Shown here: positions 10,284 to 27,725 of the stretch, one piece after another | Layout: every line of letters starts with the position of its first letter | How positions within the stretch are numbered: position 1 is the stretch's first letter | Assembly (NCBI GenBank): GCA_942491345.1 | Contig: CALOAN010000011.1 | Location: forward strand, 53,113 to 117,112 | Direction: 5' to 3' | Source of the DNA: an uncultured actinomycete | Lineage (GTDB): Bacteria > Actinomycetota > Acidimicrobiia > Spongiisociales > UBA5794 | Length of the DNA: 64,000 bases | The notes under the pieces: generated by a model | Seen by the model: the letters and a program-made list of their open reading frames with translations, nothing else | Told to the model about the DNA's origin: nothing | The model's database searches: none | Position numbers and translations under genes: made by a program

Positions 10284-10299
10284 AGCAATAGATATGCCA
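10284..10299 (-). promoter_or_regulatory. sigma54 -24/-12 promoter (island unit 4: HK2-RR-REC*-DASS1-HK1-RR)
   Basis: Minus strand TGGCATATCTATTGCT; identical to the motif at 15801-15816. Confidence 0.82.
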
Positions 10300-10396
10300 T
10301 CCAATTTGACAGACTTCACCATGGCGCAACTATTCGTTTTTGTATGGGTTATTTTATTTTTACTACAGGCTGTGGTGTTCCCATTAAACGGACGGC

Positions 10397-10413
10397 TGTC
10401 GTGAACTTTTACA
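10397..10413. promoter_or_regulatory. putative sigma54-activator upstream binding site (UAS)
   Basis: TGTCGTGAACTTTTACA, 98 bp from the promoter; matches the sites at 15912, 24253 and 27709. Confidence 0.65.
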
Positions 10414-10700
10414 CAGCGGAAAGTAATTTTTCCGGCAGGGAGGTAAGAAGCAACCGAGGGCGGTGGGATGCTTTCGCTTCACGCCGATTAGCGTTGTCGG
10501 GCGTATCCGCACTTCTCTTTTGATCTTGGCACAGCGATGTTGTTTTAAGGAGGGCTTCCGCAGGCAGAGTGCCGGTCGAACAGCTTGTGCAGCGCCGTTC
10601 GGCCGGCAACGGTTTGGCTATCTGACAGGAATGGGGCCCGGCTCAGATGATGCCACGGCGGCCACGTCCAGATGGCGTGGCATGTCGCGCAGGGCGGGTA

Positions 10701-11159
10701 TTATTTCTCCTTCTCTTGCTGAAACACACGCCCGGGAAAGCGCATCAATTCCTTGATTTGGGCTTTCCTGATTTTCTGGTCATGAAGATTTTTCTTTTCG
10801 AAAGCTTCTCCCAGCTTGGCCATCAGATCTTCCAGCTTGATGGGTTTCAAAAGATAATCGAACGCCCCTAGCTTCATCCCTTCGATGCTGGTTTCCATCG
10901 ATCCGTGCCCCGTCAGGAGAATCACTTCCGCCAGCGGCTGATGGCGTTTGATTTCCCGCAGGGTTTCAATGCCATCCATTCCGCCCGGCATTTTGATATC
11001 CAGAATAATCACGTCGAAGCGTCGTTTTTCCAAAGCCGCCAGCGCTTCTTCGCCGCTGGTGACACCGACCGTATCGATGTTGCGCTTCTGCAGACGCTTG
11101 ACCAGTGTTTCCAGAAAATCGACTTCATCGTCAACGACCAAGATGCTGAAATAATCCAT
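10701..11159 (-). CDS. single-domain response regulator (paralog of 3428-3883)
   Basis: MDYFSILVVDDEVDFLETLVKRLQKRNIDTVGVTSGEEAL, near-identical to copy 1. Confidence 0.92.
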   Translation of the reverse strand: MDYFSILVVDDEVDFLETLVKRLQKRNIDTVGVTSGEEALAALEKRRFDVIILDIKMPGGMDGIETLREIKRHQPLAEVILLTGHGSMETSIEGMKLGAFDYLLKPIKLEDLMAKLGEAFEKKNLHDQKIRKAQIKELMRFPGRVFQQEKEK

Positions 11160-11181
11160 CTGTGCCTCCCGTCTTGGTGAT

Positions 11182-12844
11182 TCATTTTTTTTCCGGAATC
11201 ACAATCGGAATCTCAACCGTAAACACGGCGCCCTTATCGGGGTTGTTCTTCACGTGAATACCGCCGCCCATTTTGGCGATAATGTTGTGGCTGACCCAGA
11301 GACCGAGGCCCGTTCCCTTGCCGGGGTCCTTGGTGGTGAAAAAGGGGTCGAAAATCTTGCGCATCATGTCCTCACTGAGTCCCGGACCGTCATCCTTGAT
11401 GGTCACCACAATATGGTCATCGCTGCGCCAGCTGGCCACCTCGATGGTGCCGTTGCTGCCGATGGCGTCGATGGCGTTGGTAAGAAGATTCAAAAAGACC
11501 TGCTGGAGCTGGGCCTGGTCCCCGGCGATAATCGGCACCGTTTCCGCCAGATCCACCTGAATGTCGATATTGTTGATGCGGGCATGGTTTTCAAGAATCG
11601 TGATGGTCTGGTCGATGGTGCTGTTGACGTCCACGTCCTCCAGACGGGGCTCCATTTTACGGGCATAACCCAACATATTATGGACCACTTTGCGCGCCCG
11701 TTCAACATGCTGCTCGATTTTGGCAATGGATTGCCGGAATTCCGCGATATTGGCACTTTGCTTGAGCCCCTCCTCCTCCAGAAGATCTTCCATCCAGCCC
11801 GTCTTCTGGAGGATGACGGCCAGGGGGTTGTTGATCTCGTGGGCCACGCCGGCGGCCATTTTCCCCAGGGCCGCCAGCTTGTCCGACTGGACCAGCTGGG
11901 CATTGAGTTCGATCATTTCCCGATCGCTTTTCTGCAGCCGGTTGATGGTGAGCCGGGTCGTAAAAATGGTGGTGGCCACGATCCCCAGAACACCCAAGGG
12001 TAATGATGAAGATCTCCATCTGACGCAGCGCAAAAAGACGCGACATGAGCTCCAGGGGCTGCTGGTTGATGATCAGCAGCCACTTGTTGTCATTCAACCA
12101 GCTGCCGGCATAAAACCGTTCCGTGCCGGCGGCGTCCTCCAGTTCGATCACCGTCACCCGACCGCCGAACTGCCGGGTGTCGATGGTGGTCTGGCCCAGC
12201 ACATCGCCGTCGAAACGCGGGCGGGTCTGGAAAACCCCCTCCCGGTTGACCAGGTAGGCGTCGCCCGTGCGCCCGATCTGGGCCGACCGCACGATCTCCT
12301 CGAAACGGTTGGGGTCGATGGTGGCCCGCAGGATCCAGGCCTGCTGGTTCTCATGGCGCCGCACCGCGATGATGAAGTGCGGCTGTTGGCGGAACCCCAT
12401 GTAGACGTCACTTTTGTAATGCCCCTTGATCATGACCTCGTTGAACCAGGATTGATCGAGGTAGTTGCGCCCTCGCAAATCATAAGGGCCGATATACGCC
12501 CTGTGGGCCCCGCGGCTGTCGATAATGCCGAGATCCACGAAGGCGCCGGCCCGGTTGTTCATCACTTCGAAAATGCGGGCCAGATTCTTCTCGTCGATCA
12601 TCTGCGCGAAGTCATGGGTATCCGCCATGGCATTCAGAATGGCCGTGCGCTCCTTCAGAAACAGATCCACCGCCTCCGCCTGGGCCTGGGCCCGGTAGCG
12701 GATCTGTTCCCGGGTCATTTCGCGGCCGGCACTTTCGAACTGGTAATAGAGCACACCCCCCAGGATCAGCAGCGGCGTCAGCGACATCACCAGGGTCAGG
12801 GTAATGATTTTACGCTTGAGCGTGCGATACAGGCCTTCTTTCAT
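11182..12844 (-). pseudogene. sensor histidine kinase HK3 (paralog of HK1) with a +1 frameshift near 11996-11997; may be a sequencing error
   Basis: ORFs 11702-12844 (sensor half) and 11182-12033 (kinase half) join at ACC CTTG GGT, against ACC CTG GGC in HK1. Confidence 0.85.
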
Positions 12845-12881: not shown

Positions 12882-14543
12882 TCAGCCGCCGTTCGGCCAG
12901 GGCAGCCACTGCCAGTAGCCGAAGATCGTCCAGAACCAGAGCACCAGCCAGCCCAGAATCGTCACCGGAATCCCATATTTGATGAAATCCATGACGTCCA
13001 GCAGGCGTTCGCCGGTTTCCGGATCCCGCCCCATGCCGAAACAGATGGCGTTGTTGGGGGTCCCCACCACCAGGAAGTTGGCGAAGGAGGAGGAAAAGGA
13101 CGTGATCAAGCCCACCTTCCAGACACTGACGTTGGCCAGGGTCGCCATGGGCAGCACGACGGGACCTAAAGCGGCCACGGTGGCACCGTCGCTCATGAAG
13201 TTGGTCATGGTGCCGGTGAGCAGGCTGACGCCCACCAGAAGACCGTCGCCCTGGGTCAGCACGTCGGGCAGCAGTCCGACGAAGGAGCTGGCCAGCCACA
13301 GGGCGCCGCCCGAAAACTTGAGGGCCACTCCCATGGCGCTGGCAGCGGCGTAAAGCCCCACCACGTCGAAGGCCACCCCGTCCTGCACATCCTCCCAGGT
13401 AATGATCCGGCACAGAAACATGGCGACGACGGCGTAAAGCGTCGGTCCCCCGAGTCCGGAATGTTCGCCGAGCACGATCCAGGCGATCACCAGGATCACC
13501 AGGATGACGGCCATCATGGCCTCGCGCCCACCGAATTTGGGCATGCGGGCCACCTCGGCCTTGACCACTTCACTGGGATTCATCTCCGGGACTAAAAACT
13601 TCGGTTTGCAGCGCAGGTACATGTACCCCCCGATGGCCACGGATATGAGGGGCACGAAGGGCATGCCGGTGATCATCCACTGCAGAAACGAAATCGGGGC
13701 CCCGTATTCCATCAGGTAGCCGACCATGATGGCGTTGCGCCCCCCGGCCGCCGGGGATCCCGGGCCCCCGTGGTTGGCGGCAAAGGTGACGCCCAGCAGG
13801 AGAAATATGGCCAGGGCGCGATCCTTGTCGACGCCGTGCATCTTGCAGGTGACTTTGTAGATGCCCATCAGGACCGGCACCAGGAGGGCCACCAGGGCGT
13901 GCTCGGATAGAAAACTGGCGGACATGGCCAGCATGGGCAGGAAGATAAACGCAAAGGCCTTGGTGCTCTTGATACGGCTCAACAGAATGAGCCCGATGCG
14001 TTTATCCAGGCCGGTTTTGGCCACACCGACCGCCACGACTAGAATCCCGAAAACGAAGAATACCGCATCGGTCATGTAGGCCTTGGAGATTTCTTCCATG
14101 GGCAGAATCGCGAACAAGTATAGCAAGACACCCACCAGGATATCGGTGGCCCCCAGGGGCAGGGATTCCGTTCCCCACAGGAAGGCTGCCAGGAAAAGGA
14201 TACCCACCGTGAGAATGGCCAATCGGGCCACTTCTTCCGGCGTGAGAAGCGGTTTCGGGTGGTGATTCGTTTTGACGGGCTCTCCCTGCTTTTCGGCGCG
14301 GAAGGCTTCCGGCCGCAACTTCTGGTTGACCGTATCGGTGATCGTGCGGGCGTCACGCCCGAGCTTGTATCCCGGGGGGTCGATCGTGCGGACCAGATCC
14401 AGCATGCTCTGGGGTGGCGGTAAAACGGCGAGCGCCGCAAAGGCCAGGGCCGCAATCAAAATCAGCAGGGGTTTGTACCCCGGACGATTTTTCCATGTCC
14501 ACCCCGGGTCCGAACCTTTGTCGATGGGCATATGATGTGCCAT
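12882..14543 (-). CDS. DASS/SLC13 family anion transporter (copy 2)
   Basis: 553 aa, same length as copy 1 and collinear with it; same motifs. Confidence 0.88.
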   Translation of the reverse strand: MAHHMPIDKGSDPGWTWKNRPGYKPLLILIAALAFAALAVLPPPQSMLDLVRTIDPPGYKLGRDARTITDTVNQKLRPEAFRAEKQGEPVKTNHHPKPLLTPEEVARLAILTVGILFLAAFLWGTESLPLGATDILVGVLLYLFAILPMEEISKAYMTDAVFFVFGILVVAVGVAKTGLDKRIGLILLSRIKSTKAFAFIFLPMLAMSASFLSEHALVALLVPVLMGIYKVTCKMHGVDKDRALAIFLLLGVTFAANHGGPGSPAAGGRNAIMVGYLMEYGAPISFLQWMITGMPFVPLISVAIGGYMYLRCKPKFLVPEMNPSEVVKAEVARMPKFGGREAMMAVILVILVIAWIVLGEHSGLGGPTLYAVVAMFLCRIITWEDVQDGVAFDVVGLYAAASAMGVALKFSGGALWLASSFVGLLPDVLTQGDGLLVGVSLLTGTMTNFMSDGATVAALGPVVLPMATLANVSVWKVGLITSFSSSFANFLVVGTPNNAICFGMGRDPETGERLLDVMDFIKYGIPVTILGWLVLWFWTIFGYWQWLPWPNGG

Positions 14544-14698: not shown

Positions 14699-15253
14699 TT
14701 ATAGTGCACAAGCCTTGATGGACGCGGTAATGGCCGCGAACACATCCGTCAACCGCAGGATGCCGACAATATCCGCCTTCCGCCGCACCAGCAGGGATTG
14801 ATAGCCCCCCACAACCAACTGATGAATGGCATGGTCCAGGGTTGCCTCGACATCGATGGTTTCCCCGTCCGACGGCACGTGCATGAAATCCTGGACGTGC
14901 TGCGCACCGGCCTTCTTGCAGATATCGTGCATGGCGCCGCCCCAGAGATTGTATTTTTCCATCAGCGATTTCATGAAAGCGCGTGTCATTCCGGTATGGG
15001 CTAAGCTTTCGCGCGCCAGGAAGGTCTCGTATTTGGGCTCCAGCGACCTGAGGACTTCCGTCTGGCCGATCTTCCCAACAACATGCCCCCGGGCATCGAG
15101 AACAAGGACGGCCCGTTGCGGATGGCGGTTGGCGTCAAATTTCTTCTGGGATTCCTCAAGGGCCAGGACGGCTTCATAGAGCGTGGCATCTTCGGATACC
15201 GTGGCGTAGTCCGCAAGCGGGATCATCAGATTTTCAATCTTCTGTGAATTCAC
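14699..15253 (-). CDS. stand-alone CBS-pair domain protein
   Basis: LMIPLADYATVSEDATLYEAV...VLVLDARGHVVGKI...ATLDHAIHQLVVGGYQSLLV...IVGILRLTDVF; its GTG start overlaps the upstream stop (GTGA). Confidence 0.82.
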   Translation of the reverse strand: MNSQKIENLMIPLADYATVSEDATLYEAVLALEESQKKFDANRHPQRAVLVLDARGHVVGKIGQTEVLRSLEPKYETFLARESLAHTGMTRAFMKSLMEKYNLWGGAMHDICKKAGAQHVQDFMHVPSDGETIDVEATLDHAIHQLVVGGYQSLLVRRKADIVGILRLTDVFAAITASIKACAL

Positions 15254-15681
15254 GACAATTCTCCTTCGCGGTAGTTGGGTCCACCAGCTTCGGTAAAATC
15301 CTGAACAGACGATGACAGCAGCTTCCCGACAGTTTCTCTGATACGTTCGATGCTGTCCCCTGTTTTCTCGATAACCGTTACCCAGTCGCTATCGATAGCG
15401 CCGATGACATCCTCGTCGTAACGCGAATGGGTATGGAGGACGATGGGCAGCCGGCCATTGTTTTTACGCAAGGCCATAAGCAGCGGCACCCCTTCGAGTC
15501 CCGGTAAATTTGGATCCAGGATCAACAGATCGATGTTGCCCGCGGGGCTGGCCATCTTGAGAACATGATCACCATTGGCGGCAAGTTTCACGCGATACCC
15601 CGACGCCATCATCTCCCGCATCAAGAACATGCGCACATGGGAATTACGATCAGCGATTAGAATCATGTTCGAAGCTGCCAC
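15250..15681 (-). CDS. atypical stand-alone receiver-domain protein (copy 2)
   Basis: ILIADRNSHVRMFL...DLLILDPNLPG...IVLHTH...VIEK; GTG start with RBS AAGGGG. Confidence 0.78.
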   Translation of the reverse strand: MAASNMILIADRNSHVRMFLMREMMASGYRVKLAANGDHVLKMASPAGNIDLLILDPNLPGLEGVPLLMALRKNNGRLPIVLHTHSRYDEDVIGAIDSDWVTVIEKTGDSIERIRETVGKLLSSSVQDFTEAGGPNYREGELS

Positions 15682-15800
15682 CGGACACCCCTTATTCCAG
15701 TAAATGCGGCCATTCCCCCGGGGAAGCAAATACGCCTCGCAAGCGCCGTGCTATGATGAAGATCTTCGCATCGTCGCATCAAAGGCTTTTGTCGTCTTTC

Positions 15801-15816
15801 AGCAATAGATATGCCA
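15801..15816 (-). promoter_or_regulatory. sigma54 -24/-12 promoter (island unit 3: REC*-CBS-DASS2-HK3-RR)
   Basis: Minus strand TGGCATATCTATTGCT. Confidence 0.82.
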
Positions 15817-15911: not shown

Positions 15912-15951
15912 TGTCGGTATTTTTTACATGATGATAAAAATAATTACGACA
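15912..15951. promoter_or_regulatory. putative paired UAS for a sigma54 activator
   Basis: TGTCGGTATTTTTTACA followed by the inverted copy ATAAAAATAATTACGACA; 96 bp from the promoter. Confidence 0.7.
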
Positions 15952-16037: not shown

Positions 16038-18680
16038 TTAGAGATCTGGTTGGATTAGGGGGTCGCCATTCTCACTGGACGACGCATCCGTCAGCGACCG
16101 GATGTCTTTTTGCATCTTGGACCGGTAGAAATCGACCATGGACCGATTGGTCATGATCATGTCCAGTTGCCGGGTGTGGAGCGTCAGGTACCCCAATATT
16201 TTGATGCGATCCAGCATGTAGGCCTTTTCAAACCCTTCGATCCGGGCGATCAGGTTATCTTCTTTCACGCTCACCCGGAAATTGTTTTCTTCCAGCAGTT
16301 CCGCGATGAAATGAATGCGTTTGATGCGTCGGCGGTCGTCGGCCGCTCCGCCTTTGAACTGAAAGCCGATATAGTTCTCCGGGGTGCGATCGCTGACCAG
16401 CGCTTCCAGGGTGGAGAAATGATACCCCAACCGGGAATTGAGGTTGCAGTAGTGTTTGGAAATCATGAAATAGTTGCGGTCCGCGTAGCGCGAGCGGACG
16501 CCGGGGGTCAAAGCGGGATTGGCCGTGGACTGGAACATGACCGCCATCAACCCTTTGCCGTCCAGCGCCGGGGGGCCGTCCCAGGGAATGGCCGCAAACC
16601 CGTCCCAGAACGCCAGCATGGGAATCGATGCGATGTTGTCGAGTCGGATATATTTCCCCCGGACCTCTTCCTTGAAGCCGTCGTCCAGGTTCAAAATCCA
16701 CCACTGCATGGGGGCATGGAAGTAGAGCTGCTTGCTGGAGCGCTCGTTGAAATGATGGTCCCGGCCGAAATGAAACATCTCATGAACGGACTTTTCATGA
16801 ATGAACCGTGTGATGTCATGGAACGTGCGACAGTTGGCCGGTGCAAACTCGGAGGCATCCGGGTCCAGCAGGTTCAAGGGCACGATCAGGCGCCCCACCT
16901 GCGCCAGGGTCTCGTAAACCGGGCTGCCGACCATCAGGCTGGTTTTCGGCGGGGACGACGCCAGCAGCGCTTCGATACGGCCGGCGTGAATGGCGCGATT
17001 CCCGGCATCCAGCGTGATCAGGGTTCCGGGCTGAAGTTCTTCCAGTGCATCGGTAACACCGAAAAGGGCCGGCAGCTCGAACTCACGCGCCACATTGGCC
17101 AGGTGCCCCGTAAAACTGCCATGCGCCGTAATCACGCCGGCCGCCCGGGTCAAAAGAGACGCCCAGCGGGGGTGCGCTTCGCGCGTCAACAGGATGGCCC
17201 CTTGCGGAAAGGCCAGCATATCCAGCCCGCTGTCCACGCGGTGAATCGGGCCGACCGCGATGCCCGGGCAGGCCGTAATGCCGCCTGCCAAGAGCACACT
17301 GTCTCCCTGTGCCGAATTGAGTGGACCGTCTGAGGATGGCGCCCGGGAGGGCATCTGCAGCAGGGGCCGGCATTGCAGGATGCAAATCTCCCCCTGCTGA
17401 TCGGTGGCCCACTCGATATCCTGGGGCGCGCCATAGTGGTCCTCCAACTGGACCGCCGTGGCCGCCAGGGCCAGGGCCTGCGCATCTTCGAGCGAGGCCC
17501 GGAGGCGAAGCCCCTCATCCATGATATCCAGCCGGCAAACCCCTTCTTCGGGATAACAGGTAAAGCGGCGTTCTTTGGGGCGAATCTCCCGTTGGACGAT
17601 GCGCTGCGGACGACCGCGGTCGACGACGAAAAGATCGCCGTCCACCGAACCGTCCACCACGGCTTTGGGAAGCCCCCAGGCGGAATTGATCACGATATTG
17701 CGGTCGTTGAGGTCGAAGGGGTTGCGGGAGTACATCACCCCGCCGGCCACCGTATCCAGCATGGCAAGACAGCCGACACACATGGCAATGTCTTCATCCC
17801 GGAAGCCTTTGTTGAGCCGGTAGGTGATGGCCGGCAGGCTGTATTTACTGGCTACGATTTGCTTGTAGGCATCGAAAAGACTATCGCCGCTTACGTTTAA
17901 TTCCGAACGGTGCATCCCCGCAAAAGAGCTGCCTTTTTCATCTTCACCCAGGGCGCTGCTGCGCATGGCCGCCGTCAACCCGGGGCCGTGGGGCGCCGCC
18001 ATGACGTCCCAGGCCTGTCGTATGGCGGTGGCCAGATCGGGCGGCATTTCCGACTGGACGATCAGTTTGTCCAGGCGGGCGTGAAGCCGGTAGAGATTCT
18101 CGATGTCGTCCAGATCGGCCGATTGCATCAAGCGGTCGATTTCCGCTTTGAGATCGTTGTGGGCCAGAAAACGGTCGTACGCAAAGGCGGTGATCACAAA
18201 GCCGGAAGGAACGCGCAGGCCGAGCCGGTTTTTCATTTCCCCGAGATTGGCCATCTTGCTGCCCACCAGATCGACCATGTCCTTGTCGATGTCATCCAGC
18301 ACAATGACCAGGCGCTCATCCAGCGCTTTCCTTTCACGGCCCATCATCGCGTCGATCTGTTGGCTGATCGCTTTGAAACGCGGCGTCAGGGCATCGTATT
18401 TTTCGGGTGCCAGCCGTTGCAGATTGTCCACCATCTGAAAAACGCTCACCGAAGCGCTGGTGACACAGGCGCGCACAAAGGCCATACCGAAAGGCCGGTT
18501 TCCCTGAAGCGCGCCTTCGATTTCCGCCATGATTTCCAGGGCTTTGTTGTTGGCGCTGATAAGCTGTTTAAAATAGGCGTAGCGTTCACGGAAAACCAGG
18601 CGCAGGTTATCCACATCGACGGTGTCGACCGTCTCCTGTTTTGGAAAAATTTTGCGGATGATCTGTCGAAAGTTGATCAT
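16038..18680 (-). CDS. PEP synthase/PPDK-like protein: ATP-grasp + phospho-His swivel domain + non-canonical C-terminal domain
   Basis: VGSKMANLGEM, RVPSGFVIT, MRSSALGED..SFAG, PQDIEWA and LQCRP (nucleotide-binding domain); GSFTGHLANVARE (phospho-His domain). The C-terminus does not show the PEP/pyruvate-binding barrel motifs. Confidence 0.85.
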   Translation of the reverse strand: MINFRQIIRKIFPKQETVDTVDVDNLRLVFRERYAYFKQLISANNKALEIMAEIEGALQGNRPFGMAFVRACVTSASVSVFQMVDNLQRLAPEKYDALTPRFKAISQQIDAMMGRERKALDERLVIVLDDIDKDMVDLVGSKMANLGEMKNRLGLRVPSGFVITAFAYDRFLAHNDLKAEIDRLMQSADLDDIENLYRLHARLDKLIVQSEMPPDLATAIRQAWDVMAAPHGPGLTAAMRSSALGEDEKGSSFAGMHRSELNVSGDSLFDAYKQIVASKYSLPAITYRLNKGFRDEDIAMCVGCLAMLDTVAGGVMYSRNPFDLNDRNIVINSAWGLPKAVVDGSVDGDLFVVDRGRPQRIVQREIRPKERRFTCYPEEGVCRLDIMDEGLRLRASLEDAQALALAATAVQLEDHYGAPQDIEWATDQQGEICILQCRPLLQMPSRAPSSDGPLNSAQGDSVLLAGGITACPGIAVGPIHRVDSGLDMLAFPQGAILLTREAHPRWASLLTRAAGVITAHGSFTGHLANVAREFELPALFGVTDALEELQPGTLITLDAGNRAIHAGRIEALLASSPPKTSLMVGSPVYETLAQVGRLIVPLNLLDPDASEFAPANCRTFHDITRFIHEKSVHEMFHFGRDHHFNERSSKQLYFHAPMQWWILNLDDGFKEEVRGKYIRLDNIASIPMLAFWDGFAAIPWDGPPALDGKGLMAVMFQSTANPALTPGVRSRYADRNYFMISKHYCNLNSRLGYHFSTLEALVSDRTPENYIGFQFKGGAADDRRRIKRIHFIAELLEENNFRVSVKEDNLIARIEGFEKAYMLDRIKILGYLTLHTRQLDMIMTNRSMVDFYRSKMQKDIRSLTDASSSENGDPLIQPDL

Positions 18681-18847
18681 GCGGCCCGGTGACGTTTGCT
18701 GGTTAGGGTGGATGGTGACGGTATCATTGCACAAGGGCATCCGGCAAGGGATGCGCAGGCGCGGCGTTTTAAAGCGCCCGCCTTCTGCCAATTCGGATAA
18801 ACAAAAGCCGTAAACGGATCATCGCATCCCCGCTGACGGCTTTCTTG

Positions 18848-18879
18848 AAAAAAGCGCCGGGCCGCTTTCGGCCCGGCGC
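18848..18879 (-). terminator. intrinsic terminator after the TauE-accessory gene
   Basis: Minus strand GCGCCGGGCCG-AAAG-CGGCCCGGCGC-TTTTTT: perfect 11-bp stem plus a 6-U tract. Confidence 0.85.
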
Positions 18880-18913
18880 CGGTCACAGCAGCGATCGGGT
18901 GGCCGCCGCACGG

Positions 18914-19600: not shown

Positions 19601-20889
19601 GAGTGCGCCTCCCCCTCTCCCTTCAACTTGCTGATGTTGGTCACAAAGGTACCGATCACCCAGACACCGAACCCGGATATGACGATGAAAAAGGCCCAGA
19701 TGCCGATGGTGTCTAAAGTGTTGCCCAGACCCGGCGAGATCGGAATCACGCCCATCTCCCCCAGTTTGGCGGGCAAGGCGAATATCCGGTTGACGAAACC
19801 GGCCAGGACCGCCATGGCGTAGAAACCACGGATGGTGATGCCAGGCACAACCTTAGTCACCATGGCACCGATCTGGATTCCCAAAAGCGACCCCAGGAGC
19901 ATGCCCATGGCCAGGGTGTAGAAGATAAAACCGTAGATGGCATACTGGCTGATGGAAGCATAACCGGCGGTGAACACGATCTGGAAAATATCGGTGCCCA
20001 CCGTTGTCATGGAAGAGACGCCCAGGACATAGACAAAAATCGGAAAGGTCAGAAAGCCGCCGCCGACGCCCATGATGCCGGCCGCAAGCCCCACCAGAGC
20101 GCCGCTGAGAACCAGGAAGACCCACGATATGCCACGGCCGCCCGGCACCAGGTCATGATCGAAACGCACCATCGGGGGGATTTTCAGGGCTTGGATTTTT
20201 TTGGGCAGGCCACCCATCTCGACGCCCTCGTCCTTGCCGCCGTGGGCACCGGCATCGGTATTGCCTCCCTTGCGGGCCTTGAGAAAGTCGACCATGGCGT
20301 AGATACCCAAAAAACCTAGCATTCCGGCATAAACAGTGGTGATAAAGGCATCACTTAATACGGGGTTGATCTCATACAAGACCCGGTTGATCACACCGCC
20401 TGTGGTCGCCCCTAAAATCGCACCCAGCAGGAAAACCACCGCCAGGGGGACGGACACATTGCCCAGCTTGCGGTGAATCACGCTCCCCATGATGGCTTTG
20501 GCAAAAATATGGAAGAGGTCCGTGCCGACGGCCAGAATACCCTTGATACCGGCGCTCATCAGGGCCGGTGCGATGATAAACCCCCCACCGGCACCGATGC
20601 AGCCGGTAATCAAGCCGGCCCCGAGCCCGATGAGAATGGATACGATAAAAATGCCGGTGCTGTAAAAGGCGGGACTGTAGGCCTTTTTACCGCCCAGCAG
20701 GTCCGGCAGCGCGCCGCCGATTTGTTCGGCAAACGCTATGCCGCCCAGAAGCACCGGAATCAGCAGCAGACCCAACAGCAGGATCCGTTTGCGGTCGTGC
20801 AGAATGGTGTGGGCATTGTCAATCTCCCACGCGGCAAAGGCTTTTGCTCCGGCCATCATGAACTGGCCCCATTGTTGGAAAAAATTCAT
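19597..20889 (-). CDS. TauE/SafE (TSUP) family sulfite/oxyanion exporter
   Basis: Repeated motifs GLITGCIGAGGGFIIAPAL / GLAAGIMGVGGGFLTFP and AVGTDLFH / TVGTDIFQ. Confidence 0.88.
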   Translation of the reverse strand: MNFFQQWGQFMMAGAKAFAAWEIDNAHTILHDRKRILLLGLLLIPVLLGGIAFAEQIGGALPDLLGGKKAYSPAFYSTGIFIVSILIGLGAGLITGCIGAGGGFIIAPALMSAGIKGILAVGTDLFHIFAKAIMGSVIHRKLGNVSVPLAVVFLLGAILGATTGGVINRVLYEINPVLSDAFITTVYAGMLGFLGIYAMVDFLKARKGGNTDAGAHGGKDEGVEMGGLPKKIQALKIPPMVRFDHDLVPGGRGISWVFLVLSGALVGLAAGIMGVGGGFLTFPIFVYVLGVSSMTTVGTDIFQIVFTAGYASISQYAIYGFIFYTLAMGMLLGSLLGIQIGAMVTKVVPGITIRGFYAMAVLAGFVNRIFALPAKLGEMGVIPISPGLGNTLDTIGIWAFFIVISGFGVWVIGTFVTNISKLKGEGEAHS

Positions 20890-20941
20890 TGCGTTTTTCT
20901 CCTCCCATGCTCGGTTGTTTCGATAGCCCAATATCTTCACT

Positions 20942-21379
20942 TCACTCTGTCGGCGAACTTTCCGATTTCAGCATCATGTTCAGGGTTTTTATTTTTGCTT
21001 CCTGTATCGTCTTTTTGTGAAAGGCATCCTGAATCTTATAGAGTAAATCATCGATATCGACCGGTTTCATCAGGTAGTCAAAGGCCCCGTTTTCCATGCC
21101 TTCCCGGGCCACCTCCAGGCTTGCATGCCCGGTCAGCATGACCACCTCGGTCAGGGGCGTCTTTTTTTTGATCGCCCGCAGTGTTTCAATGCCCCCCATG
21201 CCCGGCATCCTGACATCCAGCACCACCACGTCCGCCGGGAACTGGGCCAGATGCACCAGCGCCTCTTCACCGCTGCCGACACCGGCGGCGTTCACATCGC
21301 GTTTACGCATCCGCTTGAGCAGGGTCTGCAAAAAGTCCGGTTCATCGTCCACAAACAGGACCGTCATTGGTTCCGACAT
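20942..21379 (-). CDS. single-domain response regulator
   Basis: LFVDDE, VVLDVRMPG, MLTGHA, YLMKP. Confidence 0.92.
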   Translation of the reverse strand: MSEPMTVLFVDDEPDFLQTLLKRMRKRDVNAAGVGSGEEALVHLAQFPADVVVLDVRMPGMGGIETLRAIKKKTPLTEVVMLTGHASLEVAREGMENGAFDYLMKPVDIDDLLYKIQDAFHKKTIQEAKIKTLNMMLKSESSPTE

Positions 21380-21380
21380 C

Positions 21381-21755
21381 TCATTTCTCCCGTTTAACGG
21401 CCTGCATGATTTTGGCGACGAGATCCTCCAGATCGCTGGGTTTGGTCAGGTAGTCAAACGCACCGGAGGCAACCCCTTCCCGCGCCGCCTGCTCCGAGCC
21501 GTGCCCGGTCAACATGATCACCGGCATGGCCGGAACGAGTTTCTTGAATATCTTGAGGATTTCGATACCGTCCATATCTTCCAGTTTCAGGTCCAGCACA
21601 GCCACATCAAAATCCTGTTTGCGCAATGTCTGGATCGCCTCGGTTCCGCTATAGGCTGCCGTAACGACCATATTCCGTTTGGATAACCGTTTGCTCAGAA
21701 CGTCGACGAAACCCACTTCGTCGTCCACCAGAAGCAGCTTTATGGTCTTGGGCAT
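21381..21755 (-). CDS. single-domain response regulator
   Basis: LLVDDE, AVLDLKLED, MLTGHG, YLTKP; start at ATG 21755 after RBS GAGGAG. Confidence 0.9.
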   Translation of the reverse strand: MPKTIKLLLVDDEVGFVDVLSKRLSKRNMVVTAAYSGTEAIQTLRKQDFDVAVLDLKLEDMDGIEILKIFKKLVPAMPVIMLTGHGSEQAAREGVASGAFDYLTKPSDLEDLVAKIMQAVKREK

Positions 21756-21907
21756 GTCTCCTCGCTCATCCGTTTGGGCTGTCAATGCTCTGAGCAGCGC
21801 ACCCCGTCGGCACCCCACGTTTTGGCCGCGCGCGGCACGCCGTCGCCAGGTATCGGCGGGCGGCGTACCCCCGGCCGCTTTGGTTTATCCCAACAGCACC
21901 GGTCGAA

Positions 21908-22340
21908 TCAGGTGCGGGCTTTGAGAATGTTACTCACCCGGGCTTCACGAATCTTCTCTTCATGATCGCGCTTTTTCTTGGTGGCCGCATTCACCTTTTC
22001 GATGAGTACATCCATGTCGCAAGGTTTCATCAGGTAATCGAAGGCCCCCAGCCGCATGCCCTCGATGCTCGTTTCCACGGTGGCATGACCGGTGAGCATG
22101 ATGACCTCAACCAAGTGGAAATTCCTTGCGAATTTCTTTCAGTGTCTCGATCCCGTCCATTCCCGGCATTTTGACGTCCAAAATGACAAGATCGATCTGG
22201 CTGTTTTCTTTGAGGGTTTCCAGCGCCTCTTCCCCGCTGTAGGATTTGAAGACGGTAAGCTTCCGTTTGGTCAGCCGCTTTGTCATGGTATCGACAAAGG
22301 GGGCCTCATCGTCCACCAGCAAAACAATCGGTTCCAACAT
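21908..22340 (-). pseudogene. single-domain response regulator with a +1 frameshift at 22113-22114; may be a sequencing error
   Basis: ORFs 22107-22340 and 21908-22114 join at CCA CTTG GTT GAG; removing one base gives ...EFPLVEVIMLTGH. Confidence 0.85.
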
Positions 22341-22403: not shown

Positions 22404-24101
22404 TTAACCAACGTGTTCTTCTCGGACGGGAATCTTGATCACAAACGTCGTCCCTTCGTCCATGGTACTGTCCACACTGATATCGCCGCCCATCTTTTTG
22501 ATGATGCCGTAACAAATCGACAGACCCAGGCCGGTGCCTTTGCCCACCGGTTTGGTCGTGTAAAACGGGTCGAAAATCCGATCGAGGTTGGCGGGCGGAA
22601 TTCCCGGGCCGGTATCCCGCACTTCGATGACCAACTGGTTCTTTTCACGGCGGGTGGCGACAACAATTTCCCCCCCCTGCCGCTCCATGGCATCCACCGC
22701 GTTGTTGATCAGGTTGAGGAACACCTGCTGCATTTCGGAGGGTGACGCCTGGATGGTCGGCAAGTGCGCGTCCAATTGCGGCGTGATGGTCACCTTGGCG
22801 TATTTGGCGCGCTGTTCCGAGAGACCCACGACCTCCTCGATCAGATCGTTGATCGAAAACTCTTGCAAGCGGGCATCGGTTTTACGGGCAAAACTGAGCA
22901 GTTTGTGGGTAATTTCCTTGCAGCGCTTACCCTGTGTATTGATCTGCTTCAAGGCCCGCTCGAACTCGTCCAGGTTCTCACTCCGGGCGAAATCCTCCTC
23001 CTCCAGCAGGTCCTGAATCCATCCGGCTTCCTCGACCATGATGGCCACCGGGTTGTTGATTTCGTGAGCGATGCCGGCCGCCAGTTCACCGATGGACGCC
23101 AGTTTGCCGGTTTCGATCACCTGCTCGTTCATCAATTCCTTGGCACGGTCGGCCTCTTTGATACGCCCCACCTGCCGGATGGAGAGCATGCTGGCCATGA
23201 TGATGATGCTCACCCCGCCGACGATAAAGATGACGACGGAAATGAACTGGGCGCGCCTCAAATCCGAGAACGCGTCCGCGCTTTCCTGCCGGTAGACCAG
23301 CAGCCAATCTTTGTCCTTGAGCAGGGCCGTGACGTAGATACTTTCTTTGCCGTCATCGCCCTCACGCTCCATAATCGTGACATCGTTGTTCAGTTCTTTT
23401 TCACAGTCGAAAAAATGCCCGTAGCACCCTTTGCTGGGGACGAAGTCGATCAGCGGCTTGGTCTGGAATTCGCCCCGGCGGTTCAGGATATAGGCAAACC
23501 CGGTTTCCCCCACCCGTATATTTTCCACCAGGTCGTTGAACGCCACGAAATCAATGGTGGCCCTCAGGATCCACGGTTCCCCGTTAAAGGTGTTCTTGAC
23601 CGCAATGATGAAATGGGGCAGCCGTCGCAATCCCAAGAAAACGTCGCTGATCACATACTCCTTGCTCATGGCCTGCTGAAACCAGTCCGTGTCTGCATAA
23701 ACGGCCTCGGTCAGTTTGAAAGGGCCGGCATAGGCCACCTGCTGGCCGGCGCCGTTGATGACGCCAAGATCCACAAAAACGGGGCGGTAGTTGCGCTGCA
23801 GGGAGGCCAGGGTCGACTGCAGGAAGGTTTCGTCGCTCAGATTGGCGTAACCGAGGTTTCGGGATAGAAACCGGATATCCGCCAGTTTATCCACTAGAAA
23901 GGCATCAATTTGCTGCCGGTGTTTTTCCACCAATTCTTCAAGGTGGGCATACACTTTTTCCCGATAGGAGGCATAGAAATTGTAATAGATGGTGCTGCCC
24001 ACCAGAAACACGGGAATGAAGGAGACAACGATGATCGCCACCGTCATATTCAGCGTCAGCGAGCGATAATAAGGGGATAGCAGCTGTTTCGGTTTCGACA
24101 T
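22404..24101 (-). CDS. membrane sensor histidine kinase, Cache-like (HK4)
   Basis: Two TM segments, GIAHEINNPV, NLINNAVDA, DTGPG, FYTTKPVGKGTGLGL; start at ATG 24101. Confidence 0.93.
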   Translation of the reverse strand: MSKPKQLLSPYYRSLTLNMTVAIIVVSFIPVFLVGSTIYYNFYASYREKVYAHLEELVEKHRQQIDAFLVDKLADIRFLSRNLGYANLSDETFLQSTLASLQRNYRPVFVDLGVINGAGQQVAYAGPFKLTEAVYADTDWFQQAMSKEYVISDVFLGLRRLPHFIIAVKNTFNGEPWILRATIDFVAFNDLVENIRVGETGFAYILNRRGEFQTKPLIDFVPSKGCYGHFFDCEKELNNDVTIMEREGDDGKESIYVTALLKDKDWLLVYRQESADAFSDLRRAQFISVVIFIVGGVSIIIMASMLSIRQVGRIKEADRAKELMNEQVIETGKLASIGELAAGIAHEINNPVAIMVEEAGWIQDLLEEEDFARSENLDEFERALKQINTQGKRCKEITHKLLSFARKTDARLQEFSINDLIEEVVGLSEQRAKYAKVTITPQLDAHLPTIQASPSEMQQVFLNLINNAVDAMERQGGEIVVATRREKNQLVIEVRDTGPGIPPANLDRIFDPFYTTKPVGKGTGLGLSICYGIIKKMGGDISVDSTMDEGTTFVIKIPVREEHVG

Positions 24102-24144
24102 GGGACCCGGTTTCCTCTTCGGCAATGAAGGTGCCCCTCCGAAG

Positions 24145-24160
24145 AGCAACAACCATGCCA
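24145..24160 (-). promoter_or_regulatory. sigma54 -24/-12 promoter (island unit 2: HK4-RR-RR-RR-TauE-accessory)
   Basis: Minus strand TGGCATGGTTGTTGCT, 44 bp upstream of the start codon. Confidence 0.82.
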
Positions 24161-24252: not shown

Positions 24253-24289
24253 TGTCGGTTTTTTTTACAGGGTGCAAAAAATAACGACA
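24253..24289. promoter_or_regulatory. putative paired UAS for a sigma54 activator
   Basis: TGTCGGTTTTTTTTACA-GGG-TGCAAAAAATAACGACA (inverted pair), 93 bp from the promoter. Confidence 0.72.
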
Positions 24290-24495: not shown

Positions 24496-25932
24496 TCAGC
24501 CATCGCCTTGATAAACTGCGGTCTCAATTTTGAGATGGTATTTATCGATTTTGGCATGCAGCGTCGGCCGGGACATCCCCAGCAGTTTGGCGGCACGGGA
24601 TCGATTGCCGCCGGTGTACTGCAGCGCCTCATGGATAAGGATGCGGGCAAAAAAATCCATGCAGCGGTCGTACAAGTTGTCGGTATCCTCCGCTTTGGCG
24701 GCATCCCGGAACCAGCGCCGGATATCGCTTTCCAGGCTGCCGCTTTCCGCCTGCGGATGATCGTCCTTGCCCGCCAAGGCCGCCGCAATATCGGGCGGAC
24801 CGATAGGCGCACCGCGGTTGAAGATCAGTGTTTTTTGGAGGGTGTTGGCCAGTTCCCGGACGTTGCCGGGCCAGCGGTTGTTGGTTAAGGTGGCCAAGGC
24901 CCCCTCGGTGATACCCGGGTTTTTGATCCCCAGTTCCGCTGCGAATCGATCCAGGAAATAAGCGCTCAACAACGGAATATCGGTAATCCGCTCCCGCAGG
25001 GAGGGCAGGCCGATGGTAATGACCTTGAGCCGGTAGTAGAGATCCTCACGAAACAGGGCCTGGGAGATAAGCGTTTCCAGGTCACGGTTGGTGGCGGCGA
25101 TAATCCGCACATCCACCGGAATGGTCTCCCGTCCGCCAAGACGTTCGATTTTTTTCTCCTGCAACAGTCGCAGTATTTTGGTTTGAAGATTGACGGGCAT
25201 ATCGCCAATTTCATCAAGAAATACCGTACCGCCGCCGGCCTGCTCGATCTTGCCCAGCCGGCGATGGGCCGCGCCGGTGAAAGCGCCTTTCTCGTACCCG
25301 AAAAGCTCGCTTTCCAGCAGGGTCTCGGGCAACGCCACGCAATTGATCACAAGGAAGGGTTTGTCCGCACGCTGGCTGTGCTGATAAATCGCCCGCGCCA
25401 CCAGCTCTTTGCCGGTGCCCGTTTCGCCGCGAATCAAAACAGTGGCATCCGTCGACGCCACGCGCCCGACCATTTTGAAAACCTGCTGCATGGCATCGCT
25501 GCGTCCGATGATGGCGTCGCGGTCGGTTTTCGCGGGGGCGTCGCCCATATTGACCGGCGAGCGCATAAACCTTCCGGTCTCGAGCGCCTGGCCGATGGTT
25601 TTCAGCATGGCCGGTATGTCGAAAGGCTTGAGGATATAATCAAACGCGCCCATCTTGGTGGCTTCAATGGCGGTTTCGGTGGTGCTGAAAGCGGTCATGA
25701 TAATGACCGGCAGCTTGGGTTCAACCATATGAATGGCCCGAAACGTTTCCAGTCCGTTCATTCCGGGAAGACGGACATCGAGCACCACCACGTCGGGCAG
25801 GGCGGCGCCGACGATTTGCAGGCCCTCCTCACCGGAGGCCGCGCTTTGCACCTGATGGCCTTCTTCGATCAGCAGTTTGGCAAAACTTTTGCGCAGTTGA
25901 TCGTCATCGTCGATGATGAGGATGTGACTCAT
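24496..25932 (-). CDS. NtrC-family sigma54-dependent response regulator (REC-AAA+-HTH)
   Basis: IIDDD/VLDVRLPG receiver; GETGTGKE, GAFTGA, FLDEIG and WPGNVREL; C-terminal HTH GNRSRAAKLLGMSRPTL. Confidence 0.95.
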   Translation of the reverse strand: MSHILIIDDDDQLRKSFAKLLIEEGHQVQSAASGEEGLQIVGAALPDVVVLDVRLPGMNGLETFRAIHMVEPKLPVIIMTAFSTTETAIEATKMGAFDYILKPFDIPAMLKTIGQALETGRFMRSPVNMGDAPAKTDRDAIIGRSDAMQQVFKMVGRVASTDATVLIRGETGTGKELVARAIYQHSQRADKPFLVINCVALPETLLESELFGYEKGAFTGAAHRRLGKIEQAGGGTVFLDEIGDMPVNLQTKILRLLQEKKIERLGGRETIPVDVRIIAATNRDLETLISQALFREDLYYRLKVITIGLPSLRERITDIPLLSAYFLDRFAAELGIKNPGITEGALATLTNNRWPGNVRELANTLQKTLIFNRGAPIGPPDIAAALAGKDDHPQAESGSLESDIRRWFRDAAKAEDTDNLYDRCMDFFARILIHEALQYTGGNRSRAAKLLGMSRPTLHAKIDKYHLKIETAVYQGDG

Positions 25933-27418
25933 CGGTTGACTCCTTTACCGGCAGTGTCACGATAAGGGTTGCCCCGCCGCCTTCGGTTTCGGCGATATCC
26001 AGCCACCCGTGGTGTTCGTCGATGATGCGTTTGGCAATGCTCATCCCCAATCCGGTGCCTTCTTCCTTGGTCGTAAAAAAGGGATCGAACACTTTGGGGC
26101 GCAGCGCTTCGGGAATCCCGGGGCCATTGTCACTCACACGGATGACGGCCTCGCGCCGGGCATCCGTCCCCAGGGACACCACTTCTTCAATCCGAATGGT
26201 CCCCCCTCTTTCCATGGCTTCACAGGCATTGATCACGAGGTTCACCAGGACCTCTTTTAGTTGGTCCGGATCGGCATCCACCGCGGGAAGGCTGCTGCTG
26301 CGGATCACCTCGACATGAACATCATAGGATTTCAAGCGATGGGACAGGAGTTGCAGCACCGTGTCCACCACGGCCGAGGGGCTGATGCGTTGCATGACCA
26401 GCTTGGGCGGGCGGGAAAATTCCAAAAAATTTTGCACGATGGTGTCGATGTGGCGAATTTCCTCGGAAACGACATCGAAATCTTCCTGCTGGGCGTCGTT
26501 CAATTTAAGGCTGCGCTCGAGGGAAAACAGCCGCATTTTCACCGAGGTGAACGGGTTGCGGATGCTGTGCGCCATTCCGGCCGCCAGTTTGCCGACGACG
26601 GCCAGTTTTTTGGCCTGCAGAAGGTTTTCCCGGCTTTTCTCCAATTCGGATTGGGTGGAATCCATATTGTCCAGCAGGTCGTAAACCCGGTGACTGAGGA
26701 TTTTGATGACGTTTTCCTTCTTCGTCACGACGTCTTCATGGGTGACGGCTTGAATCAGTCGCCGGATCGGCCCCAGGATCTCTTTTACGACGATCATGGC
26801 CAGGAAAAGCGCCAGGATAAAATTCGCCAGAATCGCAACCACGGCGATCGTTCGAAGCTTTAGGGCCTCGGCGCGGCTTTCCTGCCGTGCTTCGATGATG
26901 TTGTGCACATTGACGGTCTTGAACTTGTCGCACAGGTCGAGAATGGTAAAAAAGCGTTCGCGCACCTCTTCGTGCAAAACGGCCCCGGCGTCGGAACGGC
27001 CGCTTTTATAGAGCAAAATCACTTTGTCCCGGGAGTGAACATACTGGCGGTATTCGGCGGCAATGCGGTTGATCGTGTCTTTTTGATCCGGGGAGGCGGC
27101 AAGCGACTGGGCATCGTTCAATTTGCGGTTGAAGCGCTCCTGGTATTCACGCAGCTGCCGCAGCCAGTCCGGATTGCCGTCCAGAAAATAGTAGGAAACG
27201 AATCCTTTCTGGTTGGCTAAAGCGATCTGCAGATCTTCGGCGGTTTCCAGCAGCACCATATTTTCGTCGGTGACGGTGGTGATGAGTCCTTCGATCCGGT
27301 AAGTATACCAGATCATCACCACGGCGCCCAAAAACGTGATCAGGACCAGCGATGCCAGCATCAGGTAAATTCGCTTGCGCAGAACGATGCGGTTCCAAAT
27401 GGGAATGTTAAAGGGCAT
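25904..27418 (-). CDS. sensor histidine kinase with four-helix-bundle sensor and atypical H-box (HK5)
   Basis: Two TM segments; H-box GMAHSIRNPF; NLVINACEA, DNGPG, FFTTKEEGTGLG. Confidence 0.9.
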   Translation of the reverse strand: MPFNIPIWNRIVLRKRIYLMLASLVLITFLGAVVMIWYTYRIEGLITTVTDENMVLLETAEDLQIALANQKGFVSYYFLDGNPDWLRQLREYQERFNRKLNDAQSLAASPDQKDTINRIAAEYRQYVHSRDKVILLYKSGRSDAGAVLHEEVRERFFTILDLCDKFKTVNVHNIIEARQESRAEALKLRTIAVVAILANFILALFLAMIVVKEILGPIRRLIQAVTHEDVVTKKENVIKILSHRVYDLLDNMDSTQSELEKSRENLLQAKKLAVVGKLAAGMAHSIRNPFTSVKMRLFSLERSLKLNDAQQEDFDVVSEEIRHIDTIVQNFLEFSRPPKLVMQRISPSAVVDTVLQLLSHRLKSYDVHVEVIRSSSLPAVDADPDQLKEVLVNLVINACEAMERGGTIRIEEVVSLGTDARREAVIRVSDNGPGIPEALRPKVFDPFFTTKEEGTGLGMSIAKRIIDEHHGWLDIAETEGGGATLIVTLPVKESTDESHPHHRR

Positions 27419-27593
27419 GGTCAGAAAGCCTAAATCGTGTCGTGATCGGCGTATGCCGCAATGGCCGGCAGGAGTGACGAGCGAACCACCGCACTTGCGA
27501 TCGATCCATGTTGGTATGCCATCGGCAACGCCGTCGGCGCACTCGGATGGCATCCCCTTTTCGCCGGAAAACGCATCGCAACCCGTTAAAGAC

Positions 27594-27609
27594 AGCAAAG
27601 CACATGCCA
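27594..27609 (-). promoter_or_regulatory. sigma54 -24/-12 promoter (island unit 1: HK5-NtrC)
   Basis: Minus strand TGGCATGTGCTTTGCT. Confidence 0.78.
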
Positions 27610-27708
27610 AACCACAACCGTGAATCCCGAAAACCGGCAAATGGCGGCCCGTGCCGTGGACTCAGATGCGAATCATCATAAAAAATCAAAAAAAGAACCG
27701 CATTAAGG

Positions 27709-27725
27709 TGTCAGATTTTTTTACA
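27709..27725. promoter_or_regulatory. putative UAS for a sigma54 activator
   Basis: TGTCAGATTTTTTTACA, 100 bp from the promoter. Confidence 0.65.

Follow-up and report, generated by a model that had tools for sequence, protein, structure and literature searches.

In the enteric NtrB/NtrC system, two sites for NtrC dimers lie ~100-140 bp upstream of the glnAp2 promoter, which has the form TGGCAC-N5-TTGCA, and the genes of the kinase and the regulator are positively autoregulated. We analysed a stretch of 64,000 nt (contig CALOAN010000011.1, positions 53,113 to 117,112 of the forward strand; hereafter the window, numbered from its first letter), in which one NtrC-family activator, encoded at 24496-25932, likely runs a sigma-54 regulon of four operons, as judged from promoter elements, upstream sites and their conservation. 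The mechanism is the textbook NtrC/sigma-54 enhancer design. The activator shares the REC, AAA+ and HTH_8 architecture of enteric NtrC, and the ntrC model is its best NCBIfam match. In contrast, the upstream motif is TGTC-N6-TTTTACA-N3-TGTAAAA-N6-GACA, with site centres 20 bp apart, rather than the TGCACC-N5-GGTGCA of NtrC; the kinase is a membrane 4HB/CHASE3 sensor, whereas NtrB is cytoplasmic and PII-controlled; and no nitrogen genes are among the targets.

DctB/DctD of rhizobia and AtoS/AtoC of E. coli have in common with this locus a two-component sigma-54 activator, an operon for the uptake or utilisation of an anion (there a carboxylate) and tandem upstream sites. Of the NCBIfam models, AtoS matches each kinase here best and AtoC ranks second for the activator, with scores far below the equivalog cut-offs. 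The periplasmic PDC/Cache-type sensor DctB is the kinase of its own activator, whereas here the Cache kinases are targets, paired with stand-alone receivers, and the transporters belong to the DASS and TSUP families instead of DctA. The sigma-54 regulomes of Desulfovibrio vulgaris Hildenborough were deduced in a like manner from co-located activators, -24/-12 promoters and upstream motifs, this sulfate reducer too having many such activators (PMC4641369); that study covers Desulfovibrionales, whereas the present activator belongs to a different orthogroup, in Desulfobacterales. Its text contains none of the terms TauE, Cache, phosphoenolpyruvate (PEP) synthase and pyruvate phosphate dikinase (DASS was not among the terms searched), and so gives no pointer to the present cassette. 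Literature searches returned no description of this activator or motif.

The controlled genes are of the same families as, and syntenic with, the DASS cluster of Desulfosarcina variabilis 3be13, whose regulators are called WalR type in the paper that describes it (Sci Adv 2025, PMC11887813) and are receiver-only in the window. Since physiological work of about 1990 it has been an open question how sulfate reducers change over between taking up sulfate with high and with low affinity (summarised in PMC5840216), and neither that review nor PMC11887813, in its main text and the supplements covered, names a regulator or cis-element for sulfate uptake. For a cluster believed to control the sulfate uptake of abundant marine sulfate reducers, the regulon would add the transcriptional layer that has been missing and lead to a revised model. 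It offers a concrete site, protein and promoter for study in cultured strains, and its DNA signature picks out regulon members in sediment metagenomes. A first-pass annotation of the window had recognised a regulon; the pattern proved real, but the nature of the controlled cluster (DASS-type putative sulfate transporters of Desulfobacteraceae) had been missed.

Four promoters and their upstream sites

The first-pass annotation had placed four sigma-54 -24/-12 boxes on the minus strand and, upstream of each, a 17-bp activator site at an offset of 98, 96, 93 or 100 bp; both claims were confirmed. An exact search of both strands of the 64-kb window for TGGCAY-N5-TTGCT gave four matches, at 10284, 15801, 24145 and 27594, all on the minus strand, against 0.04 expected from shuffled sequence (0/100 shuffles reached four). 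TGTAAAA-N6-GACA in promoter orientation (TGTC-N6-TTTTACA on the plus strand), searched over the same 64 kb and both strands, also gave exactly four matches, at 10397, 15912, 24253 and 27709, where shuffling predicts 0.03. Boxes and sites are paired one to one, and every site is co-oriented with its own promoter; the offsets between starts correspond to 97, 95, 92 and 99 bp between the elements (in the order 10284, 15801, 24145, 27594). As exact TGGCAY-N5-TTGCT matches, all four boxes agree with the sigma-54 consensus, a GG-N10-GC core within TGGCAC-N5-TTGCW. The promoters lie ~43 to ~175 nt upstream of the start codon of the first gene, and the operon genes of all four modules are on the minus strand. 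The regulatory elements, all on the minus strand, are as follows.

27709-27725, minus: upstream activator site of the kinase-activator operon, proximal 17-mer TGTAAAAAAATCTGACA; no clear distal half; conserved in loci L081, L083, L084 and L086
27594-27609, minus: sigma-54 -24/-12 element TGGCATGTGCTTTGCT; predicted transcription start ~27583; alignment A2
24253-24289, minus: full 37-bp dyad upstream site TGTCGTTATTTTTTGCA-CCC-TGTAAAAAAAACCGACA; distal half 24273-24289, proximal half 24253-24269; invariant columns in alignment A1
24145-24160, minus: sigma-54 -24/-12 element TGGCATGGTTGTTGCT; predicted transcription start ~24134; ATG of the kinase gene at 24101
15912-15951, minus: upstream site, proximal 17-mer TGTAAAAAATACCGACA at 15912-15928 and degenerate distal half at 15935-15951 (three mismatches, 6-bp spacer)
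15801-15816, minus: sigma-54 -24/-12 element TGGCATATCTATTGCT
10397-10413, minus: upstream site, proximal 17-mer TGTAAAAGTTCACGACA; no distal half
10284-10299, minus: sigma-54 -24/-12 element TGGCATATCTATTGCT

The promoter 16-mers at 10284 and 15801 are identical, as had been annotated, and a module of DASS, Cache kinase and receiver genes is duplicated in the window (83-85% protein identity), as would be seen if the matches were chance occurrences or relics of segmental duplication without function. The DNA flanking the two 16-mers is otherwise unrelated, so they do not stem from a recent block duplication; the shuffle expectations are 0.03-0.04, and elements and spacing are conserved across genera and metagenomes (below). 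This explanation is effectively refuted. An AT-rich tract, annotated between every site and its promoter, was found in three of the four regions, 35-65 bp upstream of the promoter, but not in the 27594 region, where a T-rich tract abuts the upstream site and the remainder is GC-rich.

Anatomy and spacing of the upstream element

Metagenome contigs were scanned with the pattern TGTAAAA-N6-GACA, 80-110 nt, TGGCAY-N5-TTG[AC][AT], without the use of any protein. The scan gave at least 120 loci (L089-L208) with at least 126 modules, and all counts given below for it are among the matches listed. When the modules were aligned on the 17-mer, positions -10 to -4 read TTTTACA with 1.1-1.6 bits, though the search pattern had not demanded it. 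Since this distal TTTTACA is conserved despite its absence from the pattern, the upstream element is a 37-bp dyad, TGTC-N6-TTTTACA-N3-TGTAAAA-N6-GACA; the 17-mer of the first-pass annotation is real but makes up its promoter-proximal half, which is the constant part. The dyad can also be read as two TGT-N11-ACA 17-mers with centres 20 bp (two helical turns) apart. Among the window's four sites, only 24253-24289 has both halves intact, its distal partner at 24273-24289 having one mismatch and a 3-bp spacer. This is one of the two inverted partner sites that had been described as clear; the other, at 15935-15951, turned out to be partial.

The gap between site and promoter was 94-98 nt in 86 of the 126 modules; side clusters flank this peak at 83-88 and 106-110 nt, few modules having gaps in between. 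Chance matches would give a flat distribution across 80-110 nt; the one observed is peaked. The side clusters lie about one helical turn either side of the main one, which fits the helical phasing expected for looping between elements on one face of the helix. A weakly conserved AT-rich stretch runs 28-51 bp upstream of the -24 box in the aligned modules. The element is dyad-symmetric, conserved and phased with its promoter, and it lies within the range of ~80-150 bp upstream that is expected of enhancers. In locus L084 the gap is 118 nt.

Homologues of the window's gene families adjoin 81 of the 126 modules. An activator orthologue of at least 60% identity was present in the locus for 22 of 126, the loci often being short, and in 20 modules it is encoded on the same strand and ends at most 1.7 kb upstream. 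The gene most often found first after a module (25 cases) encodes a divergent type of receiver, also found in the window at 15250-15729; CBS-ACT proteins (11), Usp proteins (9) and cytidylate-kinase-like proteins (5) recur as targets. Among the single cases were an acetyl-CoA hydrolase/transferase, an ADP-forming acyl-CoA synthetase, an RsbRD_N protein with a DsrM-like protein, and a tandem DsrC-like protein.

Conservation of the modules in relatives

The activator orthogroup is large in Desulfobacterales, with identities from 96% down to ~70% in a protein search, and its named members are from Desulfosarcina; an exact-protein look-up gave no match. A scan of a genome collection by peptide patterns found only one near orthologue, at 61% identity, which we attribute to the patterns used; the closer relatives came from the protein search and from contigs. 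On contigs with orthologues of 96, 87, 83 and 76% identity, the gene order is kinase, activator, dCache kinase, three receivers, TauE-family permease, 228-aa protein and PEP-synthase-like protein, and dyad and promoter are kept both before the dCache kinase gene and before the kinase-activator pair. The same modules were found in L081, L083, L084, L085, L086 and L001. In a five-species alignment of the intergenic region between activator and Cache kinase, the invariant islands are TGTC, TTTT.CA, TGTAAA, GACA, an AATAAA tract and TGGCA...TTGCT.

In Desulfosarcina ovata and D. variabilis the gene order is rearranged, with the cassette upstream of the kinase-activator pair, and the Cache kinase gene follows the dyad and a TGGCAY-N5-TTGAT promoter, whose spacing is unchanged. 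These promoters were missed by the strict promoter pattern, and the TTGAT variants of the -12 element were found by reading the sequence. The kinase-activator genes of D. ovata run directly on from the preceding gene of a module-driven row; those of D. variabilis end such a row, the 250-bp gap before the pair having no module. In D. variabilis, two DASS genes and one Cache kinase gene each stand directly behind a module, the gaps measuring 96, 94 and 95 nt. Three of four modules in the Desulfosarcina isolates have TGGCAY-N5-TTGAT (L087 590-605; L088 1501-1516; L209) with unchanged dyad spacing. The 61%-identical orthologue, from a metagenome-assembled Desulfobacterium, is flanked by two modules, one before Usp and CBS genes and the other before receiver, GGDEF and cytidylate-kinase-like genes. 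The pairing of module and activator is kept in relatives whose activators are 61-96% identical to that of the window, and the module, with its rigid spacing and its tie to the activator's orthologues, is conserved throughout Desulfobacterales.

The candidate activator

The kinase-activator operon comprises two genes.

25904-27418, minus: sensor histidine kinase with 4HB_MCP_1/CHASE3, HisKA and HATPase_c domains; 29-bp overlap with the activator gene; start at 27418 taken from the 504-aa call in L081
24496-25932, minus: NtrC-family enhancer-binding protein with REC, sigma-54 AAA+ (GAFTGA) and HTH_8 domains, assigned from Pfam and the translation

Pfam E-values for the activator are 1.9e-30 (REC), 1.3e-73 (sigma-54 AAA+) and 2.2e-13 (HTH_8), and its translation contains GETGTGKE, FLDEIGD, EKGAFTGA and LDVRLPG, providing the Walker A and B motifs, the GAFTGA loop and the phospho-acceptor Asp. 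It scored 498.7 against the NtrC model TIGR01818, below the equivalog cut-off of 558.6, and 452.8 against the AtoC model NF008469 (cut-off 714), so it is neither NtrC proper nor AtoC. The helix-turn-helix (HTH) is at least 90% invariant at most positions in 121 orthologues. No other regulator of the cluster has a DNA-binding domain, the rest being receiver-only proteins of 124-160 aa. Judging from the gene overlap, the kinase at 25904-27418 is likely the cognate kinase of the activator.

We infer that the activator binds the dyad, from their co-location through rearrangement, its possession of the sole DNA-binding domain, its near-invariant HTH and the distinctness of a second sigma-54 activator in the window. 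The first-pass annotation had likewise linked motif and protein; the pairing through rearranged loci and the 20 modules of the protein-blind scan that follow an orthologue support this link. Several points weigh on the other side. The evidence for the regulon is sequence and comparison. Among the window's genes there is no rpoN, only rpoD (36709-38991). Bending by IHF had been suggested, and a scan between enhancer and promoter for the IHF consensus WATCAANNNNTTR gave no match better than two mismatches. The metagenome pattern itself forced TGTAAAA and GACA. The -12 element is TTGAT, with GA rather than the canonical GC, in two of three D. variabilis modules and in the D. ovata module, and 45 of the 126 metagenome modules are without a recognised neighbour and could belong to paralogous activators.

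If another activator bound the dyad, either a paralogue elsewhere in the genome or the second activator of the window, co-location with 24496-25932 would be incidental. The second activator (50088-51101, minus strand; 337 aa) has AAA+ and HTH only and lacks an N-terminal domain, a PspF-like architecture; a few metagenome modules (L177, L185, L199, L205, L208) adjoin activators just 36-49% identical to 24496-25932, and the 45 modules without a recognised neighbour would be accommodated. However, the recognition helix of the second activator differs (NRTTLVEKI versus SRPTLHAKI), its own sigma-54-like promoter has no dyad, and the motif tracks orthologues of 24496-25932 through rearrangements, with 20 protein-blind matches at most 1.7 kb downstream of one. 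Binding by another activator is improbable. Upstream of the second activator gene are a sigma-54-like box TGGCATCCGTGTTGCC at 51777-51792 and an open reading frame for a small membrane protein at 51441-51710, both on the minus strand; the second activator may be a separate stress module.

With 24496-25932 as the activator, the adjacent 4HB/CHASE3 kinase would phosphorylate its receiver domain, and activator dimers on the dyad halves, with centres 20 bp apart, would assemble into an active ring. The AT-rich DNA between site and promoter would bend, so that the ring could touch the sigma-54 holoenzyme and open the promoter. One predicted output is the kinase-activator operon itself, giving positive feedback; the other comprises the three operons for the Cache kinases, the stand-alone receivers, the CBS protein, two DASS/SLC13 symporters and the TauE/TSUP permease. 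The kinase-activator operon carries its own site and promoter (27594-27725), both conserved. Positive autoregulation is a reasonable inference, because the operon has its own module in the window, L081, L083, L084 and L086, and because the pair is placed in a module-driven row in D. ovata and D. variabilis. A bistable switch is not supported.

Signalling between kinases and receivers

The first-pass annotation had proposed that the activator drives its own operon and its own sensors. The first part agrees with the conserved module of that operon; the second probably does not hold for the Cache kinases, to judge from the DHp and alpha-1 helices. The residues after the phospho-His are HSIRNPFTSVKMR in the 4HB/CHASE3 kinase and HEINNPLAVILQK in the Cache kinases, and the receiver alpha-1 helix is DDDDQLRKSFAKLL in the activator versus DDEVDFLETLVKRL, shared by the stand-alone receivers. 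The DHp helices of the Cache kinases and the alpha-1 helices of the adjoining stand-alone receivers form a group apart from the 4HB/CHASE3 kinase and the activator receiver. These differences weakly favour two separate tiers over Cache kinases as sensors of the activator; the Cache kinases are members of the regulon but probably not the activator's own sensors.

The Cache kinases could instead be extra sensors that phosphorylate the activator, in a many-kinases-to-one-regulator network with feedback on sensor abundance that might be bistable. All the kinases share an HExxNP-type HisKA box and have the same AtoS model as best match, the activator is the sole DNA-binding regulator in the cluster, and sensors and activator are co-regulated, all of which would suit such a network. 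Against it stand the differing post-His residues and alpha-1 helices, and the receivers that follow each Cache kinase. D. variabilis has a REC-CBS fusion (L209 8548-9450) with a CBS part homologous to the CBS protein of the window (14699-15253; E = 3e-15); this fusion suggests a protein-level output of the receivers, acting on CBS proteins, and it too speaks against the network, which we regard as rather unlikely. Under the two-tier arrangement, the second tier would consist of the Cache kinases and receivers and would probably act post-transcriptionally.

The probable target cluster and its possible substrate

The genes behind the module at 24145 are listed here, with a hairpin after the 228-aa gene and, beyond it, a PEP-synthase-like gene that may or may not be transcribed from the 24145 promoter.

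22404-24101, minus: dCache_1 sensor histidine kinase, first gene of the operon
21910-22340, minus: stand-alone receiver gene with a 1-bp frameshift (extra G) near 22111
21381-21818, minus: stand-alone receiver, REC only
20942-21379, minus: stand-alone receiver, REC only
19597-20940, minus: TauE/TSUP-family anion permease
18914-19600, minus: 228-aa conserved membrane protein of a family not recognised, always adjoining a TauE-family gene
18853-18880, minus: strong terminator-like hairpin of 12 pairs followed by a T run, separating the 228-aa gene from the PEP-synthase-like gene
16038-18791, minus: PEP-synthase-like protein with ATP-grasp and swivel-His domains, without the PEP/pyruvate TIM barrel, and with a conserved C-terminal domain; syntenic with the cassette

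The operons behind the modules at 15801 (first five entries) and 10284 (last six entries) contain the following genes.

15250-15729, minus: divergent stand-alone receiver, in which ADRN replaces the usual acidic pair
14699-15253, minus: CBS-domain protein, 4-nt overlap with the receiver gene
12882-14543, minus: DASS/SLC13 anion symporter, 74-76% identical to D. variabilis proteins
11182-12844, minus: dCache_1 histidine kinase, frameshift-split near 11990-12003, 84-85% identical to the kinase at 3907-5658
10701-11159, minus: stand-alone receiver
8492-10189, minus: dCache_1 sensor histidine kinase
7958-8428, minus: stand-alone receiver
7403-7834, minus: divergent stand-alone receiver of the type at 15250-15729
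5607-7268, minus: second DASS/SLC13 symporter, 83% identical to that at 12882-14543; no promoter of its own in the 135-bp upstream gap
3907-5658, minus: dCache_1 sensor histidine kinase
3428-3910, minus: stand-alone receiver, final gene of the row

PMC11887813 describes a DASS-type sulfate-transporter cluster in D. variabilis 3be13 with "numerous TCSs and CBS-domain proteins" (TCSs being two-component systems), assigns it to sulfate uptake from proteomics, and proposes sulfate sensing by Cache kinases, "WalR type" regulators and a PhoRB-like model. The window cluster has the same composition (DASS, Cache kinases, response regulators and CBS proteins) and is syntenic with it. The DASS protein at 12882-14543 shares 74-76% identity with proteins of D. 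variabilis that carry the names SLC13 family permease and sodium/sulfate symporter. A D. variabilis locus with one of these DASS proteins abuts the activator locus, and the activator orthologue ends that cluster. The regulators adjoining the Cache kinases in the window, D. variabilis and D. ovata are 124-160 aa long with Response_reg only, and thus lack the winged-helix Trans_reg_C domain of WalR/OmpR proteins. In its main text and the part of the supplements covered, PMC11887813 mentions no sigma-54 promoter, upstream site or enhancer-binding protein for the cluster. In D. autotrophicum the DASS genes react to the concentration of sulfate (Tarpgaard 2017, cited in PMC5840216), and in a supplementary protein list the DASS gene HRM2_40290 is followed, at a distance of two locus tags, by HRM2_40310, a two-component regulator of the sigma-54 type.

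By homology to the D. variabilis cluster, the function of the circuit would be transcriptional control of sulfate uptake. We tentatively propose, as a possibility we hold with clear reserve, that one sigma-54 activator governs the transcription of sulfate-uptake genes in marine Desulfobacteraceae as their master switch. This activator would determine how much is made of the DASS and TSUP transporters of high and low affinity, and likewise of an array of Cache kinases and stand-alone receivers, which would act on CBS and Usp proteins to tune transport post-translationally. Such a scheme would replace the PhoRB/WalR-like model. Three further points count against the regulon model as a whole. Sulfate as substrate of the DASS and TauE-family proteins, and as signal, is presumed from the literature, where sulfate transport by DASS and sulfate sensing by Cache domains were themselves deduced from proteomics and transcript levels (PMC11887813, PMC5840216). 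The D. variabilis DASS proteins are reported in PMC11887813 to be constitutively abundant, which an inducible circuit would allow only with its activator switched on at the sulfate level of seawater. A strong terminator-like hairpin stands upstream of the PEP-synthase-like gene.

The circuit might also be as described but serve the sensing and uptake of another anion, either a di- or tricarboxylate or an organosulfonate with export of sulfite. The DASS proteins match just the general DASS subfamily model, below its cut-off; close DASS homologues carry the JGI name 'sodium-dependent dicarboxylate transporter', and in Pfam the permease family goes under 'sulfite exporter TauE/SafE'. Genes for acetyl-CoA hydrolase/transferase, ADP-forming acyl-CoA synthetase and BKACE with a TRAP transporter are found among the other targets of modules. 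On the other hand, the cluster is syntenic with, and 74-76% identical to, one assigned to sulfate uptake by proteomics, the D. autotrophicum DASS genes respond to sulfate concentration, the window operons have no catabolic enzymes for carboxylates or sulfonates, and modules elsewhere have DsrC-like and DsrM-like genes among their targets. Control of another anion is possible but doubtful.

The PEP-synthase-like protein is ~870 aa long, and its C-terminal 280 aa are very strongly conserved and have no recognised fold. Structure prediction with a fold search showed nothing beyond the ATP-grasp and swivel-His domains already known, residues 640-740 being poorly modelled. Orthologues (59-86% identical) are common in Desulfobacterales, and in relatives they lie within the cassette adjoining the activator's orthologue; metagenome loci often have a 36-38% identical paralogue next to the module, encoded divergently. 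A weak GG-N10-GC match at 18776-18791, before the PEP-synthase-like gene, was rejected as a promoter, having no upstream site.

Other features of the window

A fifth module at 1475-1490 was rejected, as the one-mismatch site at 982-998 fits neither in spacing nor in orientation. The sigma-54-like box there (TGGCATAGACTATGCT, plus strand) precedes an acetyl-CoA hydrolase/transferase gene (1658-3205, plus strand), and the sequence at 982-998 is a dyad half with one mismatch, badly placed relative to the box. In metagenome locus L123, a 70%-identical homologue of this hydrolase/transferase is encoded downstream of a Usp gene under a dyad/sigma-54 module. One-mismatch matches to TGTC-N6-TTTTACA outside the modules number six (22559, 30530, 35929, 38644, 49718 and 982; 0.73 expected for all matches), and those whose position was checked are mostly within genes.

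No internal promoters were found before the DASS genes, and an Rfam scan of the regulatory regions gave no RNA family. Directly behind the 24145 promoter and just ahead of the ribosome-binding site, the predicted 5' leader has a hairpin, CTCTTCGG-N16-CCGAAGAG (24110-24141, minus strand); the 96% relative has a similar one, and in the 87% relative its register differs.

Several genes look interrupted: the receiver gene at 21910-22340, the dCache kinase gene split near 11990-12003, dnaG (39042-40870), which consists of two abutting open reading frames in different frames, and ispD (31984-32999), which is seemingly shortened at the N-terminus. These point to either assembly indel errors or true pseudogenes. 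The rest of the window is ordinary chromosome, with rpoD, dnaG, his genes, glyA and an aspartate-kinase-like gene (amino-acid kinase and ACT domains). RNase P RNA (class A; 34196-34584, minus strand) and tRNA-Met (36507-36579, minus strand) are encoded near rpoD and dnaG, a core-chromosome context.

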